From the NCBI GenBank assembly GCA_963765895.1, contig CAVXZB010000062.1, positions 1 through 17,024 on the forward strand: a DNA stretch of 17,024 nt, read 5' to 3'. Position 1 is the stretch's first letter; every line of letters starts with the position of its first letter. A program made the position numbers and the translations under genes. Source of the stretch: an uncultured Nitrososphaeraceae archaeon (GTDB taxonomy: Archaea > Thermoproteota > Nitrososphaeria > Nitrososphaerales > Nitrososphaeraceae). Positions 8,871 through 17,024 of this stretch are shown in pieces. The notes under the pieces are model-generated. The model had not been told where the DNA came from, ran no database searches, and saw only the letters and a program-made list of their open reading frames with translations.

Positions 8871-9818
8871 GGCTATGTAGAAAACATCATCAATATTACA
8901 AGATTAGTCAGTCTATGCATATTGTAGGTGATACATCTAAATGATAACTCTCTGTTCTGCATTCTAGTCAATCTAGACATAAGATTCTCTCCAAATAGTC
9001 GTTTTATGACTGATATTATGGTTTCATCTTTGTTTCGTTGATTGTACAGCAATTTGGAGTAACCACGCTTCATCTGCTTTCTGTACTTACCATGTGTTCT
9101 CCACATCGGTACATGTTCATATCGAGCAGGAATAATACTGAATGCATGTAAGTCCTCTCTTACGAGAAGGTGATTATCTTCACTATCGTAACCCTTATCA
9201 GCTGTAACTACGGATAATGGAAGAATATTTGATGTCCTTGTTATAATTGGCCTGAAATCTACATTATCATGCCTTGTTGGAGCTCGTCTTATCTTAATTG
9301 TACATATGATTTGTTGTAATACATCTACTCCAATAGATAATTTCGCATATTTTCTTCTCAATTCTGTTCGATCAGTATAATATTGTGATGCATGAGTTAT
9401 CTTAAATCCTGTTGAATCTATTCCTGCAAAGATATGCTTGGTACCACTAATTACAATGAATGACGAAATTATCTTTTCAAGCAATGAATTATTGATTCTA
9501 TCTGTAAACTTTTGCAATGTTGTAAAATGAGGAATACGTGACAACCGTAGAAATGACCTTAGGTAATAGGCTTCAATTAACCACTCGACAAACATTCTAT
9601 AACTCTTACCTTCATACTGTCGTATAGCAACTAGAACTATGTGCTGCCATATTGTAAATATGTGATTACTTTTCCTGTTAGAAAATAGAGGAATCCTTGC
9701 ATGCTTCAAAACACGGAACATAGTACCTGCAAGTCTGACGTACATTGATTCTTTCAATAGACTATTGGTATTATACTCTTACAAAGCTTTGACTGTATGA
9801 GATGGTTTCTACACAGCC
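8871..9818 (-). mobile_element. Complete IS5-family insertion sequence (probably ISH1 subgroup), 948 bp
   Basis: TIRs GGCTATGTAGAAAACATC (8871-8888) and GGCTGTGTAGAAACCATC (reverse complement of 9801-9818), 16/18 identical. Perfect 8-bp target duplication GATTAATA at 8863-8870 and 9819-9826. Size and 8-bp DR fit the ISH1 subgroup. Confidence 0.93.
8873..9757 (-). CDS. IS5-family DDE transposase
   Basis: IPHFTTLQKF, GIDSTG (D), ADKGYDSE (D), YNQRNKDETIISVIKR (E). The stop codon lies inside the TIR and the ORF is uninterrupted. Confidence 0.95.
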   Translation of the reverse strand: MKESMYVRLAGTMFRVLKHARIPLFSNRKSNHIFTIWQHIVLVAIRQYEGKSYRMFVEWLIEAYYLRSFLRLSRIPHFTTLQKFTDRINNSLLEKIISSFIVISGTKHIFAGIDSTGFKITHASQYYTDRTELRRKYAKLSIGVDVLQQIICTIKIRRAPTRHDNVDFRPIITRTSNILPLSVVTADKGYDSEDNHLLVREDLHAFSIIPARYEHVPMWRTHGKYRKQMKRGYSKLLYNQRNKDETIISVIKRLFGENLMSRLTRMQNRELSFRCITYNMHRLTNLVILMMFST

Positions 9819-10411: not shown

Positions 10412-11867
10412 CTACCACCCTAATGTGTTTGCAGATTTTGAAGCGGCTTCTGCTAACGCTTGGCTTGGATCCTTATTTTCAAATTGAACTTCATAGATTG
10501 CTTGCCGAATATTATCAGCTATTTGAGGGTATTCAGGAATTGATGGCCGTGTTCCTGCAAACGGAATCATGGAGACTAGTTGTCTATAATATGGATAAGA
10601 TAAAGCAGTAGAATTTAATAAATCACTTTTACCCATGGATATTTGAGTTGGCAGTACCCCAGTTTGACGAAGATAAGGACCAAGTATCTTGGGCTCGAGG
10701 GTTAGTTCAATTAGCTTCCATGCAAGATCCTTATGAGTGGATGCCTTGGGTATGCCTAATGCATAGCCTCCCATCAATGTTGAAGTTTGATTATTTTTAT
10801 ATGGAACTGGTAGCGCTGGGATAAAACCAATCTTGTCTTCAAATTCTTTTTCAGACTGCCTTTGAAGAAAGCTTACTGGTAGCCATGATCCTTCAATCAT
10901 GACTGCAAACTTCCTTTCAAGAAATTCTAACCCCCAAAAATGATTTTTCTGTGGTTTAATTCCAGCATCGACTTGCTGTTTGATAAAATTCATTGCTTTT
11001 ACACCTTCAGGTACTATTAAAGGCAGGAAACCAGTAAGTACATTTTGTAGGATGTCCGGACTTCATCTTCAATATCTCACCGCCAAGCATCCACAGATAT
11101 GGATACCATAAGTCAGGAGAATGACTAGCTCCTGTAAGATGAATACCTTCTATTCCCTGAGGTCTTAGCACAGTGTTTAGTTTTTTTGCAGCTGCAATAT
11201 ATCCGTCCCAAGTCCTTAAGGAATCTGGATTGACGCCTGCCTTGCCTAATAGATCTTTCCAATACCATATTCCTCTGATATCTGTCCATGCCCATATTCC
11301 ATAGACTTTTCCACCATAAATCCCACTATCCCAATTCTCATCATACCAGTCGTTTTGTCTTCCCCAATTCTTTGTATAATTTGTAAGATCAGTCAAGAGT
11401 CCTTTCTGAGCGAACTCTCCAAGCCATATTTGATCTAAGGATATTAGGTCAATTGATCCAGAGACTGTTGTGCCATTAAGTGCCTTTAGTATCTGAAATC
11501 GAATTTGATTCGAGGGATATTCCAAATATTTTAATTGAATATCGAAATTTGGATACATCGTTTTCAACTTGGTTAATGCACTCTCGAGTAGTGGTTTTCC
11601 CATTTCGCGGTTATTATCTAATTGTACGAAAATAACAGTTAGGACAATCTTTTCCTTTTGGGTTAATAACTGGGCAAAACTAGGCTGAGCAACAGTTGTA
11701 AAAATAATTACAGTAAGTCCTACCAACAAAAAGAGTAGCAAGGGTGTAAGTTTACTGTAAATTCTAAATGTAAAAAAGATTTTGATAATCTGAATAATAG
11801 ATCCATTCCCGAATCCATTCAGTACATCATAATAAAACGAACAGAATTTCCTAGTTAACATTTTCAC
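10412..11867 (-). pseudogene. ABC-type sugar/extracellular solute-binding protein (family 1) disrupted by a single-base insertion
   Basis: Motifs DLISLDQIWLGEFAQKGLLTDL, YWKDLL, AVMIEGSW, LMGGYALGIP, RPSIPEYPQI. Removing one base at 11010/11011 (AGT ACC TGA AGG to AGT ACT GAA GGT) fuses the two ORFs as FNSTEGVKAMNF. The true start is probably downstream of 11867. Confidence 0.85.
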
Positions 11868-12437
11868 ACATATTTCAAGGATTAGATACCTTCGTAGTCA
11901 TGCCGTTTAGAGTAAAAAAATACAATGTTATATAAAGTATTGCTATGACTATATTAATATACACCATAGCATTAGTGAGCAGACCATTCATTACTGGAAA
12001 TCCCATTAGAGAACTACCTTATAGAGGATAAGTATTTATAATATACTGGACATTCTTAATAGAAAATTACCATAATTGGTAAACTAAGACAGTATCAAGC
12101 CGGCCAACTGGTGAATATGATCAAAAAATGGACTGTGTCGTCAGCCATTAGTTGGCCAGATGGAGGTTTACCATTGTCTCCAGGGTTAACATTGGTCGAT
12201 GAGGAGATGCAAGATCTTTATTATAGAATTAAATATCTGCATCCTATACTCTGCATGGTCAAGATATTTTTCTAATTCAGGGCAGTTAATACATGAAGAT
12301 TTTAAGCTGTTAGAAAAAATCGTACTAATTTAGATATGAAGTGCAAGGTTTTAGTTCAGGCCTAGCTGACCAATATGATGATATAAACGCCCATAGAAAC
12401 ACTAGTATTATTAGCAATATTGTCTATAGATTTATCG

Positions 12438-12602
12438 ATGAGTATAGAAAGGAAAAATCCACTAAAGCGTGATCAAGCATTAAATGATGCTACTGGCGGG
12501 CAAATGGGAGAGCAGCCAAGACCACAACCATCAAAACCGGCAGATGACAACTTGAATGAACAACGCCGAAGGGCTGCTCGAAAAATGTCGAGAGACCTGT
12601 AA
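12438..12602 (+). CDS. Small hydrophilic hypothetical protein (54 aa)
   Basis: ATG at 12438. GC-richer than its flanks; charged, Pro/Gln-rich sequence MSIERKNPLKRDQALNDATGGQMGEQPRPQPSKPADDNLNEQRRRAARKMSRDL. Confidence 0.6.
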   Translation: MSIERKNPLKRDQALNDATGGQMGEQPRPQPSKPADDNLNEQRRRAARKMSRDL

Positions 12603-13244
12603 TCATAGTTTGTCTTCTCGCGCTTACTAATACATATATAAAATTTCAGTATGGAGTAGTTATGTATTAAATTGAAGACAGAATCGGATTATTGAATTAT
12701 TATATCCATGTGGAAAACGTCTCTAAAGTATGTTCCTAGATGAAATTATAAGTAACTCCCTTTTTGTTATTTAGTAATAATAATTTGGGAATATCCTATT
12801 ATCGCAAACTAATGCATTCATGTACCTACCAGTATCTATCTCTTACTATCATCCTGATAGTCTAAGCGAAACCATCGTTCAATAATGAGTTTTCCAATTC
12901 AAATCTATTTACATATGTCTATCTTACATTAAACTTTTACCCATTTTTCATTCAGTTTAGTAGATAATGACAAATTCTATTACAACTCAGATCAACGAAG
13001 GAAAAAGGCACATACCACAAACATCATCGACGTCGTCGTCGTCGTGATGAACAATAAGATAATAGTAGCAATCATAATGGTTATTTCAAAAATTCTGTAT
13101 ATTCATAAAACTAGCAGTAGATGATTTTTAAGAAAAGTGATGCATAATAAGTTATGAAGACATAATACTCCCATTCTAAATATGTGTTGATATGGCAAAA
13201 AAATAGTTAAAAACATTTTATAGTTTATACTCCATTCTGATTTA

Positions 13245-13664
13245 ATGGCAACAAAAACTTTGTAAAATTTACTAGTAAAAGATCTCACTAAAATAGTATA
13301 GTTCTTTAGCAAGCTTGGTTTTAAATTTAACCCTCAATTTACTGATAAGAATGCGACATGTATGATTATTGGTGATGATCTATTCGTTATGCTCTTGATT
13401 GAAAGGTCTTTTAAAAAACCTTTACTAAAAAGGCAATTTATGATACCTCAAAAAATACTAAAGTTATAGTAGCATTATCGGCCAAAAGTAGAAAAAAGTG
13501 ATCAGATGATAAGCACAGCTATAGAATATGGAGAAAGTGAGTCTAAAGAACCACTAGACCATGGATGGATGTATGGACGTAGTTTTGAGGACACCGATGG
13601 GCATATCTGGGAAATAATATACATGGATGAAACTGCGATAAAAAATAATGAAAAGCCTTCATGA
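13245..13664 (+). pseudogene. Decayed VOC family protein (COG3607, lactoylglutathione-lyase-like)
   Basis: Manual translation: MATKTL*NLLVKDLTKIV*FFSKLGFKFNPQFTDKNATCMIIGDDLFVMLLIERSFK/TFTKKAIYDTSKNTKVIVALSAKSRK/DQMISTAIEYGESESKEPLDHGWMYGRSFEDTDGHIWEIIYMDE. Full length, with 2 stops and 2 frameshifts. TTTTATA about 23 nt upstream. Confidence 0.9.
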
Positions 13665-13915
13665 TGCCATAAGTAACTTTTTGTGCGAAAAATGATGAGA
13701 TATTATTGAATATAAACATGCTATTCCCAAATGACACATAACAATAAACTTCTCATATCTAGTTGCTCAAACTAGTTATGTTTAATAAATAAAAGTTGTT
13801 TAAGAAATAAGGCTGTTTCTTGTTGTAGTTGCTATTGTTATTACTACTAATCATTTTCCAAATTAGGATTTTAAATTATACAATTAAAACTGGATACAAA
13901 ATAGTAGATAGCTAG

Positions 13916-14161
13916 CTAAGACAGCATATCTTTTATTTGTTAAAAATGTCTAGAAAATGTAATACTTTTCTGTCGTCTTACAGGTTCTTTCTCTTGACGA
14001 ATATTCTATTAATCCATTTCTATGTAAAAGAAACAGATATTGTTAAATGGAATATGGCTTATTGATGCTGTCCGGAGTATTTCTGTATGTCTTACCCTCT
14101 GAGCTTTCGCTGTTTCCAGTATTGAAGCAATTATATCAAATCTATTTCGATACAGAGTCAT
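13916..14161 (-). pseudogene. Decayed archaeal winged-helix transcriptional regulator (COG3432/HTH_45-like)
   Basis: MTLYRNRFDIIASILETAKAQRVRHTEILRTASISHIPF/QYLFLLHRNGLIEYSSRERTCKTTEK/LHFLDIFNK* matches the YR.R.DII..IL...YL..L...GLI.....TT.KG..FL pattern, with at least 2 frameshifts. Confidence 0.8.
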
Positions 14162-14292
14162 TTACGACCTAGGAATATAATGCTAGACATCATTAATGAA
14201 TGTATTAGTGATAAGTGGCTGACACTTTATGTAAGAATATGATATTTTTTCAATCTTTATATTCAATATTAACCAAAATTTGTATTGTCTGC

Positions 14293-14524
14293 TGAGGTCT
14301 TCTTGCTTCGATATTGTATGTATGATGGCAATATCTAAACTACGGAAACCGGTTTAGAGGTTTGCTATGGATCAGGTATATTCTTTGTAGCATTTATATC
14401 TGACATATCAATGAATCCTATTTACTCCCTGACTCCTGCTCTTATCTCTGGAGTTTTGAACAATTCATGGTTTTATTGGTCGGCTACGTTTGTGGTCCTA
14501 TCTATTATACAAGATATCCTATGA
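14293..14524 (+). pseudogene. C-terminal remnant of an aquaporin (MIP family)
   Basis: IFFVAFISDISMNPIYSLTPALISGVLNNSWFYWSATFV corresponds to the second NPA loop (GASMNPARSLAPAL.SG....W.YW), with NPAR mutated to NPIY at 14414-14425. The upstream part is frameshifted and the N-terminal half is missing. Confidence 0.75.
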
Positions 14525-15278
14525 TCTAATTATGAAATTTAGTTAAGGAATTACTCGTGAACATTTTCTTTGGCGATGTTTAATTTGTAAATTTCATCCT
14601 CCTCCAAAATAAATATTTAGTTATGTATTTTGAATAAATTATCAAATCTTTTGTTTCTGAATTAAACAAAGTATCTGTTTTGAAGTACAGCGTATCACGG
14701 ACATTCTATTTTTATCATACGCTTTCTCTAAATATAACATCTACTTTAATGAAGTCTTTGACACATCATTCATCAAAAAATCCATACAACATATTTGTTT
14801 GTTACCAGCACGCGTGACGACATTTCTTACTACTTTGTCACAGTATTTCACGATCTTTTTCACTATATATTCAAATCTGATTTTGTCTTTCTGTTTGTAG
14901 TTTTTCTTTAAATCTAAGTAAAAGAATAGTAATATGTTTTATGGTATCATTAAACCACTTTAATTTGATCATCTGTTTGGTAGAAGAACTATTTGGTGGG
15001 CCAAAAAACATCTAAATAGATTGCCATCATTGGCATAGCGGTCTATGGATCTTATCAATTGTACCATCAATTCATCATTTGGATAAATTGATAGATGATG
15101 TTTACGCGGCACTCCTGAATTGTCATGATTTAGCTACATATTAACGGCATCTTTCACTATAGAATTTACAGTAAGTCCTCTGCTTAGATATAATTACTAA
15201 TCTCTCATGAACTTCAAAGCCCCCCAATTATAAGAGTGTGAGTTAGATAGATATTTTATTTGGCGCGTGTAAAATATA

Positions 15279-15329
15279 GATAGCTTGATAGCATTATTGT
15301 ATAGCTTTATATATTGCTATCATGCTATC
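15279..15329 (+). promoter_or_regulatory. 19-bp inverted repeat enclosing a TATA box (TTTATATA, 15306-15313) upstream of MGMT; candidate operator
   Basis: Left arm GATAGCTTGATAGCATTAT (15279-15297) versus reverse complement of the right arm (15311-15329) GATAGCATGATAGCAATAT: 17/19 match, 13-nt spacer. The TATA box ends about 24 nt before ATG 15337. Confidence 0.65.
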
Positions 15330-15336
15330 ATATTCT

Positions 15337-15732
15337 ATGAATAAATACTGGAAAAAAGGAACGACGAATCATGATAACAAGAGTCCAATTCACAAGGCAA
15401 TTAAAGATGAAGATGTTTATCACTTACTGCTACAAATACCAAAGGGAAAGACTACTACATATGGGGATCTTGCAGCGGCCCTCGGACATCCTTCAGCTTC
15501 CAGATTAATAGGGCAAATCGTGGGTAGAAATCCTAATCCAATCAAAGTACCGTGTCACCGCGTAGTAAAATCTGATGGAATGTTGGGCGGTTACAGTGGC
15601 GGGGTTGATAGAAAAATAGAACTGCTCAAAAAAGAAGGCATATCCATTAGCAATAATATAACCATTGATGACTTTGAAAATGTACGATTCTATCCTAAAA
15701 AAGTATTAATGAAGATACAAAATAATAATTAG
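15337..15732 (+). CDS. ogt: O6-methylguanine-DNA methyltransferase (MGMT family, single DNA-binding/catalytic domain)
   Basis: IPKGKTTTYGDLA, SRLIG, NPNPIKVPCHRVV (active-site Cys retained), LGGYSGG...K..LL..EG. ATG 15337 is preferred over 15322 because of TATA spacing. Confidence 0.9.
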   Translation: MNKYWKKGTTNHDNKSPIHKAIKDEDVYHLLLQIPKGKTTTYGDLAAALGHPSASRLIGQIVGRNPNPIKVPCHRVVKSDGMLGGYSGGVDRKIELLKKEGISISNNITIDDFENVRFYPKKVLMKIQNNN

Positions 15733-15733
15733 T

Positions 15734-16171
15734 TTGAATAAAAATACACGAAAGATTTTCGACGTGAACTGGCAAAAAGTAATTAAAGAATTAAACCGAA
15801 AGGATATTCTTTAATACCCAATCCTGCTTATATGTGTGAATAACTTGAATCAGATCTGAACTTAGACTCAAAATAATGAAAAACTACAATTCTATATTGG
15901 AATATTAGAATAGGCCATCACATACCGCATCAAGATTCGTATGAAAAGATTTTCCATTTTAACTAGTTATATTCCTAGATGAGCCTTAGATGACTATACT
16001 GACTGAGATTTGTGTCAACACAACAAATTCCGAGTATAATCAAAAGCTATTGACTTCAAATTTCAGGCCTCAGATCCAAAGGGATATTATCAATCATCAA
16101 ATGAGATATGGATTTAGTGAAGTGCATGATGGAAAGAGATACATTTGATATTATTTTTTCATGACGGCCTA
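15734..16171 (+). pseudogene. Heavily decayed 2OG-Fe(II) oxygenase of the DUF2086/Oxygenase-NA family
   Basis: Collinear fragments across frames: DVNWQKVIKELNRK/GYSLIPN; HQDSYEKI/FPF*LVIFLDEP/DYT/STQQIP/SKAI/TSNFRP/SKGYY/MRYGFSEVHDGKRY/FHDGL. These match the family's HQDLYG..FP...L.EP..DYTGGEF..QQ.PR.QS...RP..G..GYY...HGVS.V..G.R..LGIIFHDA. HQD is at 15928-15936. Internal deletions are likely. Confidence 0.8.
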
Positions 16172-16229
16172 GAAGATATATTTATCTATATAATATTAAC
16201 TATGAGGAGATTATCAACATATATAGGAA

Positions 16230-16427
16230 ATGATAAAGATGAATTTGCTTTGCTTTGAGTTTAATAAGATTAATAAGATTAACGATAAACCAAATTACAG
16301 CTCAAAAAAAAGAAGAATAAAAATAGAATGTGTACATTTCGATCAGAACATGACAGGACTTTATAATTTAGATATTGATCCCCATGATCAAGATATTCAT
16401 AAAGAATATATGGAATTGAACAGATAG
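16230..16427 (+). pseudogene. Short ORF, possibly a decayed Ada-type metal-binding (Ada_Zn) protein
   Basis: NYSSKKRRIKIECVHF, an off-frame FRSEHD and HKEYMELNR loosely echo C.SGKRMK..NRVFF.SE.EA...RPC.HC...Y. Size and position between DUF2086 and alkB fit, but the key cysteines are not preserved. Confidence 0.35.
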
Positions 16428-17024
16428 ATGAATCTAATTAATAATAATAAAATAGTCCAGGTCTTGAATAGAGATGGAAGAGCAGATTATTATGGAAAAA
16501 TAATGACAAATATGGAAGCTAACCTATATTTTGAAATTTTATTACAAAATATAGTGTGGAAAAATGATGAAGCTATAATTTTGGGAAAGCATATAATTAC
16601 TAAAAGAAAAACTGCATGGTACGGCGACTCTGATTATCTATATACATATTCAAATACTACAAGACGAGCACTACCATGGACTAGCGAACTTAGAGACCTT
16701 AAACAATTGGTCGAAAAGTTAACAGAAACAAAATTCAATTCTTGCCTACTAAACTTATATCACGACGGAAATGAAGGTCTGGCCTGGCATAGCGATGATG
16801 AAGAAGTATTGAGAAGAAATGGCACTATTGCTTCCTTGAGTTTTGGAGCGGAGAGAAAATTTTCACTTAAACACAAAAAGACCAAACAAACAATCTCGAT
16901 TGTACTTGAACACGGAAGTTTGCTCGTAATGAAGGATGAGACTCAAGTCTACTGGCTACATAGCTTACCGAAGACAAAAAAAATTGTAATGCCTAGAATA
17001 AACTTAACTTTTCGGGAAATAATA
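16428..17024 (+). CDS. alkB: AlkB-family Fe(II)/2-oxoglutarate dioxygenase (ALKBH2/3-like group); stop codon lies beyond the window
   Basis: 199 open codons from ATG 16428, not in the ORF track. RKTAWYGD..Y.YTYS, FNSCLLNLYHDGNEGLAWHSDDE (HxD), IASLSFGAERKF, LEHGSLLVM, WLHSLPK (distal His), PRINLTFR (RxxxxxR). Confidence 0.95.
   Translation, partial: MNLINNNKIVQVLNRDGRADYYGKIMTNMEANLYFEILLQNIVWKNDEAIILGKHIITKRKTAWYGDSDYLYTYSNTTRRALPWTSELRDLKQLVEKLTETKFNSCLLNLYHDGNEGLAWHSDDEEVLRRNGTIASLSFGAERKFSLKHKKTKQTISIVLEHGSLLVMKDETQVYWLHSLPKTKKIVMPRINLTFREII

Follow-up and report, generated by a model that had tools for sequence, protein, structure and literature searches.

The closest described counterparts of the locus examined here are the bacterial Ada systems, known from the Escherichia coli ada-alkB operon and recurring, mostly in Bacteroidota, as a variant that we call 'split Ada'. 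An Ada regulator joins a Zn-binding methyl-acceptor to an AraC-type helix-turn-helix (HTH). Among AlkB proteins themselves, van den Born et al. (2009; PMC2790896) describe human ALKBH2 and ALKBH3 as most similar to AlkB group 1B, and state that the single group 1B protein assayed repaired DNA in all assays. Our subject is an alkylation-repair locus of an uncultured Nitrososphaeraceae archaeon, at the end of contig CAVXZB010000062.1 (assembly GCA_963765895.1). The window analysed is this complete contig, C62, of 17,024 bp, within a draft genome of 4.9 Mb and 36.8% GC. Four co-oriented units lie there: an intact MGMT gene, a DUF2086 relic, a relic of a small Ada-type Zn-binding (Ada-Zn) gene, and AlkB. 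An earlier note, made from the sequence alone, took them for a bacterial operon acquired whole and set under an archaeal promoter. We consider it very likely that the locus is instead a chimera, in which a native archaeal MGMT unit was joined by a captured bacterial DUF2086–Ada-Zn–AlkB module that later decayed.

Set beside the E. coli operon and the Bacteroidota variant, the archaeal locus keeps the same unit order and orientation, has homologous DUF2086, Zn and AlkB genes, and combines the same two direct-reversal chemistries. It differs in that its first gene is an apparently native MGMT without the AraC-HTH, that no full-length Zn sensor occurs in 20 archaeal loci, that its promoter appears to be of the TATA type with dyads linked to a ribbon-helix-helix (RHH) family, and that in the window DUF2086 is dead as well. 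Neither half of an Ada regulator is therefore complete, as MGMT has no HTH and the small gene is partial in 20/20 archaeal loci; because the archaeal locus lacks both the AraC-HTH and a full-length Zn sensor, Ada-type induction would not be expected to operate. The features of the locus are as follows.

15279 to 15329, no strand assigned: control region, with a dyad GATAGCTTGATAGC (15279–15292), a TATA-like element TTTATATA (15307–15314) and an inverted dyad GCTATCATGCTATC (15316–15329)
15322 to 15732, plus strand: MGMT/Ogt, an intact single-domain O6-alkylguanine-DNA alkyltransferase of 136 aa (PF01035, TIGR00589)
15734 to 16188, plus strand: pseudogene relic of a DUF2086/PF09859 (Oxygenase-NA) 2-oxoglutarate (2OG)-Fe(II) oxygenase, placed by DNA alignment to genome G005
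16189 to 16427, plus strand: relic of a small Ada-type Zn-binding (PF02805) gene, placed by DNA identity to the G005 spacer
16428 to 17024, plus strand: AlkB-family Fe(II)/2OG DNA dioxygenase (ALKBH2/3-like, PF13532), 199 codons, 3′ end open at the contig end
14542 to 15184, minus strand: pseudogene of an RHH-domain protein, divergent from MGMT, found by tblastn; a candidate native regulator of the MGMT promoter

The host genome

Several lines of evidence place the contig among the archaea, as the earlier note had supposed. An archaeal amoA lies on contig C24 of the same genome, relatives carry the names Nitrososphaerales, Nitrososphaeraceae or Ca. Nitrosopolaris, and contig bases 1–15000 match four same-genus genomes at 83–95%. 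On this sequence evidence the source is an ammonia-oxidising archaeon of the Nitrososphaeraceae. The close packing first described also stands: the DUF2086 relic starts at 15734, two bases past the final base of the MGMT stop, and the AlkB ATG immediately follows a TAG at 16425–16427. The 695 bp separating MGMT from AlkB carry stops in every frame, with a longest open piece of 52 aa.

The MGMT gene

The first gene belongs clearly to its family, matching PF01035 at E 5.1e-32 (110 bits, cut-off 27) and the ogt model TIGR00589 at E 3.2e-25 (88 bits, cut-off 46.4). The PCHRV motif is the active site that holds the acceptor cysteine, and it tells true transferases from alkyltransferase-like proteins. 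In the window protein KVPCHRVV aligns with VPCHRVI of Mycobacterium tuberculosis OGT (4wxd), so that the acceptor cysteine is present. Together with the full 136-aa open reading frame (ORF) and a ratio of nonsynonymous to synonymous substitution (dN/dS) of 0.30 against the same-genus genome G005, this bears out the description of MGMT as intact. It is the sole PF01035 gene found in the genome. The position of the TATA-like element hints at translation from the ATG at 15337 instead, and so at a protein of 131 aa.

The distribution and relationships of MGMT point to a gene that was in the family before the rest of the cassette. Homologs occur in 250/301 genomes of the phylum, including 43/43 in the sister family, as short ORFs, and in 5/5 family genomes that have no AlkB. 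The MGMT tree unites 11 family cassette rows with seven sister-family rows (SH-aLRT 99) and sets them off from 36 bacterial AraC-HTH-MGMT rows. Cassette MGMTs are 45–53% identical to those of the sister family, 50–74% to those of module-free family genomes and 40–48% to the MGMT domain of bacterial cassettes. With 118–157 aa, the archaeal cassette proteins have neither the AraC-HTH nor the N-terminal domains. We infer that MGMT is a native short archaeal gene that did not arrive with the bacterial module; the proposal that it was acquired with the operon is disfavoured by the grouping with the sister family and its presence in all five AlkB-less genomes.

The AlkB gene

AlkB covers profile positions 5–194 of 194 of PF13532 (E 4.2e-33, 115.6 bits, cut-off 31.2). 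Among solved structures, human ALKBH2 (E 2e-31) and ALKBH3 come nearest to it; E. coli AlkB was not among its Protein Data Bank matches at E <= 1e-5, and its scores against the E. coli-type equivalog models fall far below their cut-offs (NF011930, 30.1 bits against 267; TIGR00568, 28.9 against 231). In AlkB proteins HxD...H supplies the iron ligands and RxNxTFR binds 2-oxoglutarate. The window segments WHSDDE, LHSLP and RINLTFR align with human ALKBH2 (3bty), so that both motifs are in place. The protein is 96% identical to its ortholog in G004, the nearest relative, and 84–85% to that in G005, with a dN/dS of 0.11 against the latter. AlkB had been described as intact, which holds apart from its 3′ end: compared with the 206-aa G004 ortholog, the window copy is cut by the contig end and falls short of the last seven codons and the stop. 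The suggested likeness to AlkB group 1B consists of ALKBH2 and ALKBH3 as nearest solved relatives and of aligned motifs.

Further AlkB material lies elsewhere in the genome. The last ~12 AlkB codons, from window positions 17009–17024, and downstream DNA (93% to G004) are found in contig C3 (G000:C3:4091-4500, where G000 is the genome of the window) behind unrelated sequence, so that C62 breaks off within AlkB either at a join that the assembly left unresolved or at a structural variant. Another AlkB fragment sits at G000:C47:93724-93978 (+); it has two TAG stops and shares 51% identity across residues 113–198. Fragments of AlkB with stops occur in many family genomes.

The DUF2086 and Ada-Zn relics

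The identity of the DUF2086 relic is settled by DNA alignment to the intact gene of G005, which has the same order of units: an intact MGMT of 131 aa, DUF2086 of 241 aa, a 243-bp spacer and AlkB of 199 aa. Window and G005 cassette DNA align over 15302–15846 at 78.4% (E 1.5e-125) and over 15880–17024 at 75.6% (E 0). Relative to G005, the relic has lost ~246 bp internally and a further 2, 4, 28 and 11 nt, its ATG has become TTG, and stops stand in all frames. On the window alone PF09859 gives E 0.03 (14.3 bits) and E 0.41 (11.8 bits), under the cut-off of 26.2, and so does not by itself assign the region to the family. A profile of 65 bacterial proteins finds the piece 15990–16145 at E 2e-4, among 1187 six-frame pieces. 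The relic proposed earlier is thus upheld by a sub-threshold Pfam signal, the bacterial profile and 76–78% DNA identity to G005. G004 has the same relics, in one alignment over 15361–17024 at 95.5%, and the decay must therefore predate the split of the window and G004 lineages and is not an assembly error. G002 retains a smaller remnant.

The G005 ortholog covers the whole PF09859 profile (positions 1–172, E 3.6e-77); the window copy is a relic only. A predicted model of the G005 protein (pLDDT 96.6) has the double-stranded beta-helix of a 2OG oxygenase. Its closest solved folds are prolyl-4-hydroxylases and PHD2 (TM 0.5–0.6, 12–16% identity), with ALKBH6 ranking 42nd, and no solved relative of DUF2086 was found by sequence. 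The genome of the window holds a second, stand-alone DUF2086 at G000:C25:41611-42083 (−), locus L001, with a 1-nt loss in an A-run and a second change near the 3′ end. It is nearest to the solo copy of G002 and may be a true pseudogene or an assembly slip.

The fourth unit had been put forward only with a question mark, as a possible Ada-Zn gene. The guess was right, and the proof is indirect. Positions 16189–16427 are about as long as the intact small gene and are 75% identical to the G005 spacer (168/224 aligned bases, z 12.8 against 300 shuffles). The G005 spacer in turn matches the bacterial Ada-Zn profile and reaches E 2.8e-4 against PF02805 (21.3 bits, marginally below the cut-off of 23), although one TGA interrupts it. 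Through this chain of homology by way of G005, rather than directly, the Ada-Zn relic is real. PF02805 itself has no match to the window relic at E <= 10, and no match above its cut-off anywhere in the window's genome, contig C62 included. A 65-aa ORF at 16230–16427, aligned by eye, reads NYSS and DPHDQD where bacterial proteins have KCSS and RPCGHC; it has no Pfam match, and its frame is broken by a 1-nt deletion in G004, so that it is not conserved.

To look for the small gene elsewhere, we built a profile from 18 bacterial 81-aa Ada-Zn proteins and scanned 20 archaeal loci. Six pieces reached E <= 1, five of them below 1e-5, and none was full length. The five remnants, by genome, are:

G021: profile positions 1–59 of 81, E 2.8e-16
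G049: profile positions 1–44 of 81, E 3.2e-15
G005: profile positions 19–62 of 81, E 7.6e-14
G095: profile positions 8–58 of 81, E 1.1e-12
G020: profile positions 52–81 of 81, E 1.8e-6

The 3′ end of the Ada-Zn relic probably contains a promoter for AlkB, AAAGAATATA, 31–22 nt before the AlkB ATG, a site conserved in the window, G004 and G005.

Bacterial relatives of the cassette

Queried with 12 aligned DUF2086 sequences, a genome set with one representative per species yielded 599 relatives, of which the best 80 (six archaeal, 74 bacterial) were used. Within this best 80 of 599, archaeal DUF2086 is 47–69% identical to bacterial genes that come mostly from Bacteroidota. By tblastn, the order MGMT, DUF2086, small Ada-Zn, AlkB on one strand occurs in 20/74 bacterial loci, again mostly of Bacteroidota, in agreement with the clustering that the earlier note had described. 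In the bacterial cassettes the first gene is a fusion of HTH_18/AraC with MGMT, and residues 86–348 of E. coli Ada align with it. The small gene encodes 81 aa and matches PF02805 at E 3e-9 to 4e-8; its counterpart in Ada is residues 41–76. Judged by these alignments, the AraC-HTH-MGMT protein and the small Zn protein together are a 'split Ada'.

The DUF2086 tree, which leaves out locus L124 as a 334-aa fusion, has 83 rows. Its 18 archaeal rows form one shallow clade (SH-aLRT 99) inside a Bacteroidota-rich group; the DUF2086 loci fetched span at least six bacterial phyla, and the family comprises 3030 representative clusters at E <= 1e-3. Bacterial and archaeal AlkB are 56–64% identical, and in a 53-row AlkB tree the approximately unbiased (AU) test leaves a single archaeal clade unrejected (p 0.571). 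These relationships suggest a bacterial, Bacteroidota-like origin for DUF2086, Ada-Zn and AlkB. Because MGMT groups with archaea and the module groups with bacteria, the archaeal cluster is best described as a chimera. The acquired bacterial operon of the earlier note thus holds for DUF2086, Ada-Zn and AlkB, given the nested clade and the finding of AlkB in 0/300 genomes of the phylum elsewhere, and fails for MGMT, which appears native. Flanks were compared between MGMT loci with and without the module, and only MGMT itself matched, with no other common genes within 1.5–4 kb.

Three bacterial loci are of interest in themselves. An uncultured Nitrosomonas metagenome-assembled genome (MAG; L063, 3120–5746) is a bacterial ammonia oxidiser with the complete cassette of AraC-HTH-MGMT, DUF2086, Ada-Zn and AlkB. 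In a Flavobacterium MAG (L068:4786-5625) the small Ada-Zn is fused to AlkB in a protein of 279 aa, and the fusion of 334 aa in a Bacteroidetes MAG (L124:3995-4999) joins DUF2086 to the small Ada-Zn.

Distribution and decay across the Nitrososphaeraceae

AlkB is present in 55/121 family genomes and 13/18 genera, a count that includes the window genome and two unpublished genomes (53/119 without those two), and in 0/300 genomes of the phylum outside the Nitrososphaeraceae. PF09859 occurs in 6/6 same-genus genomes, 10/24 other family genomes and 0/16 genomes from other families of the order. The event is thus old and family-wide, not a feature of this one genome.

The state of DUF2086 was counted in 26 archaeal AlkB loci of published genomes, window included, with at least 900 bp upstream. 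It is intact upstream of AlkB in 11/26 loci, a relic in 2/26 (the window and G004) and undetected in 13/26. The distance from MGMT to AlkB is 116–700 bp in G020, G043, G002, the window and G004. We read this as repeated loss of DUF2086, with a pruning that appears recurrent and graded. The idea of a cassette pruned to its two repair enzymes is therefore correct in that both middle genes have decayed here, and needs amending in that the pruning is recurrent and not particular to this genome, G004 being alike.

Comparison with G004 separates the two kinds of unit. Identity is 95.0% for the DUF2086 relic and 94.9% for the Ada-Zn relic, with 7 and 8 gap columns, against 97.0% and 97.2% for the two genes, with 3 and 0 gap columns, at a synonymous divergence (dS) of 0.065–0.073. 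The relics diverge at about the synonymous rate, which fits neutral decay. MGMT and AlkB, with the dN/dS values given above, are under purifying selection, and the claim that selection kept these two genes is borne out.

Contigs from RNA libraries touch both ends of the locus. In three metatranscriptome runs, contigs ~97% alike cross the MGMT stop into the relic (15367–15953); others cover AlkB, one of them beginning at 16427. No RNA-library contig lies over 16127–16426, which is not evidence of absence.

The upstream control region and a ribbon-helix-helix protein

The archaeal promoter proposed for the locus is supported by the TATA-like TTTATATA between two dyads, the second of which, GCTATCATGCTATC, overlaps the first MGMT ATG. 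Only three 14-bp dyads of this kind occur in the 4.9-Mb genome, two of them at this locus, with ~0.3 expected per arrangement, and homology to G002 starts exactly at 15279, the first base of GATAGCTTGATAGC. The layout of a dyad, ~22 nt with a TATA element and a second dyad recurs between an RHH gene and MGMT in G014, G126, G020 and G002.

In the window the RHH gene is a pseudogene. The intact 248-aa protein of G126 matches it by tblastn over residues 24–202 at 43% and 217–248 at 66% (E 3e-39), with several stops; within 14675–15184 these are one TGA, two TAG and two TAA. The protein is intact in G126 and G014. Homologs of the RHH family occur in 62/121 family genomes (60/119 without the two unpublished), 9/43 sister-family genomes and 0/257 genomes elsewhere in the phylum. 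All RHH loci examined (28/28) have a 14-bp dyad no more than 200 nt from where the RHH gene starts. In 15/28 loci, spread over six genera, the gene divergent from RHH is MGMT, 76–221 nt away, and next after MGMT comes DUF2086 or AlkB itself; G014 has no AlkB, yet its MGMT still stands beside the RHH partner.

The N-terminal 45 residues of the protein are weakly RHH-like (FitA-like E 1.4e-3, ParG E 2e-3 to 0.025), all under Pfam cut-offs. The C-terminal ~200 aa match no Pfam family, carry five invariant Cys and give a weak hint of a RecA/KaiC-like fold in a low-confidence model (pLDDT 64.7, TM 0.3–0.4). The 782 homologs are all annotated as hypothetical. The likeness to the RHH autoregulators ParG, FitA and CopG thus consists of the weak N-terminal match and of dyads in a divergent promoter (28/28); the archaeal protein differs from these types in its extra, Cys-bearing C-terminal domain of ~200 aa. 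The arrangement suggests that the RHH protein may bind the dyads and regulate MGMT and AlkB.

The genome also encodes an intact RHH paralog at G000:C84:466677-467444 (−) (locus L154:2178-2945), 64% identical to the G126 type and with a glutamine-rich linker; the pseudogene of the window is nearer to the MGMT-linked type than to this paralog. The paralog has its own upstream GATATC-type dyad, GATATCATGATATC, and its divergent neighbour is a 426-aa calcineurin-like phosphoesterase. This Metallophos neighbour, considered as a conserved partner of the second paralog, recurs in 3/28 loci only. A MEDS domain was also considered for the RHH protein, but Pfam has no such match at E <= 0.1. We also considered a second, inverted relic copy of the cassette upstream, as short inverted repeats tie 14600–15170 to it; the blastn and tblastn matches (E 0.017–0.7) are at chance level, and the region proved to be the RHH pseudogene.

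A wider hypothesis, which we hold only tentatively, is that the Nitrososphaerales have an Ada-independent alkylation response of their own. An order-specific RHH and Cys-rich regulator would act on GCTATC-NN-GATAGC dyads at the MGMT TATA element, controlling itself and MGMT, and the captured AlkB module would have joined this circuit. If so, the bacterial sensor would have become redundant, which would account for the lack of a full-length Ada-Zn in the archaeal loci examined. With its linked regulator dead and the operator surviving, the cassette of the window would then be constitutive or cross-controlled by the C84 paralog (operator GATATC-AT-GATATC).

Proposed history and competing explanations

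In the history that we favour, the native Nitrososphaeraceae unit would have been a short single-domain MGMT divergent from an RHH gene, its TATA box flanked by 14-bp dyads. Downstream of this MGMT, a bacterial DUF2086, small Ada-Zn and AlkB module, part of a 'split Ada' cassette, would have been captured, most likely once and from a Bacteroidota-like donor. Thereafter full-length Ada-Zn would have disappeared, its AraC-HTH partner being absent from the archaeal loci as well, and DUF2086 would have been kept or lost by lineage. In the lineage of the window, shared with G004 and partly with G002, DUF2086 and Ada-Zn appear to have become neutral relics, and the adjoining RHH gene is dead too. 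From its intact motif and purifying selection, MGMT is predicted to act by suicide transfer of the alkyl group of O6-alkylguanine to the Cys of PCHRV. AlkB, on its motifs and selection, is predicted to carry out oxidative demethylation of 1-methyladenine, 3-methylcytosine and the like with Fe(II) and 2-oxoglutarate. The dyad-flanked archaeal promoter would drive MGMT, and AlkB would depend on read-through, on a promoter within the Ada-Zn relic, or on both.

Some observations weigh against this history or against parts of it. The AlkB backbone does not resolve, and the free tree requires two changes for Archaea. The trees were built by a 'quick' method with a midpoint root, and taking the best 80 matches to an archaeal query as the bacterial sample biases the set in which the nesting is seen. 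The proposed history does not account for a bacterial module sitting directly after a native MGMT with the gene order of bacteria. For the Ada-Zn relic of the window there is no significant protein-level match (none in Pfam; E 0.83 with the bacterial small-protein profile), and the final codons of AlkB sit on another contig in an arrangement that is not resolved. The RNA evidence consists of assembled contigs that possibly include DNA, from which neither transcript ends nor a single transcript can be resolved. Indel errors, finally, seem to affect the assembly, in which amoA is broken into three pieces and coverage by long ORFs is low, with only 60% of genome bases (56% of C62) in stop-to-stop frames of at least 100 aa. 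Single-base lesions alone are for this reason unreliable here.

Transfer of the whole four-gene operon from bacteria, MGMT included, followed by its placement under an archaeal promoter would account at once for the gene order shared with 20 bacterial loci, and the archaeal MGMT is still 40–48% identical to the domain of the bacterial cassettes. We regard it as improbable, since identity is higher to the sister family and to module-free family genomes, the tree joins the cassette MGMTs to the sister family, neither the AraC-HTH nor the N-terminal domains are present in the archaeal gene, and MGMT stands beside its RHH partner even in the AlkB-less G014. Transfer in the reverse direction, with the Nitrososphaeraceae as the source of the DUF2086–AlkB module for bacteria, is less probable still. 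The trees are unrooted and cross-domain identity is high, which would allow it; against it stand the breadth of the DUF2086 family across clusters and phyla, with the archaea as one shallow clade, the intact AraC-HTH and Zn domain of the bacterial cassette beside a merely decayed Zn gene in archaea, and the lack of module genes in the genomes of other archaeal families that were searched (PF09859 in 0/16, AlkB in 0/300). Least credible of all is an artefact, be it bacterial contamination, a chimeric contig or decay produced by assembly errors. This is a draft with an estimated 2.4% contamination, a frameshifted-looking amoA and the low long-ORF coverage already mentioned, yet the first 15,000 bases of the contig match same-genus genomes, the independent G004 assembly has the same relic layout at 95.5%, contigs from other public runs show it too, including the deletion junction, and the lesions include deletions of 246, 28 and 11 bp, beyond homopolymer slips.

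A larger, though still minor, share of probability goes to the view that the 'relics' are not inert, the 695-bp stretch being kept as a leader or internal promoter of AlkB or for the 65-aa peptide at 16230–16427. The conserved AAAGAATATA and the RNA-library contig that begins at 16427 speak for it, as does the persistence of a small-gene remnant directly ahead of AlkB in several genera, including cases such as G020 that have lost DUF2086. Divergence from G004 at about the synonymous rate with accumulating indels argues the other way, as do the broken 65-aa frame in G004 and the far shorter spacers of G002 (499 bp) and G020 (116 bp); conservation is apparent in only the last ~30–150 bp. Capture of a bacterial module behind a native MGMT, with subsequent decay, thus remains the reading that we prefer.

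Other features of the contig and genome

The genome's only archaeal amoA locus (G000:C24:168102-168652) is read in three frames, implying two frameshifts within ~75 nt, and represents either assembly indel errors or a broken ammonia-oxidation gene. Within the window, an IS-type DDE transposase (8873–9757, minus strand; PF01609 E 1.1e-13) lies in DNA, 8871–9818, that matches dozens of sites in all four same-genus genomes searched. An SBP_bac_1 solute-binding protein at 10412–11867 (minus strand) is split into two adjacent ORFs, 10412–10993 and 11007–11867, and is probably frameshifted. The ~2.7 kb from 11870 to 14540 contain no ORF of at least 70 aa; fragments there include an HTH_45 piece at 14012–14161 (minus strand, E 5.5e-4). 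No Rfam family matched in the window, and no intrinsic-terminator-like site was found in 15100–17024.

Implications for alkylation repair in the Nitrososphaeraceae

We found no published description of AlkB or DUF2086 in these archaea, or of the RHH regulator, in a search that left most subscription journals outside; the papers found on AlkB with Nitrososphaera dealt with alkane hydroxylases only. An ALKBH2/3-like AlkB occurs in ~45% of sampled family genomes and is under purifying selection. Being both widespread and under such selection, this bacterial-derived AlkB is apparently put to use in repair by soil ammonia oxidisers. Its family-wide presence in archaea runs against published statements. 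The locus also offers a natural dissection of a transferred operon, in which the catalytic genes appear to have been kept and the donor's regulatory parts, the AraC-HTH and the Zn sensor, lost, with DUF2086 seemingly dispensable in about half of loci. Lastly, it points to an uncharacterised archaeal regulator family with a clear conserved operator, one that is open to testing.

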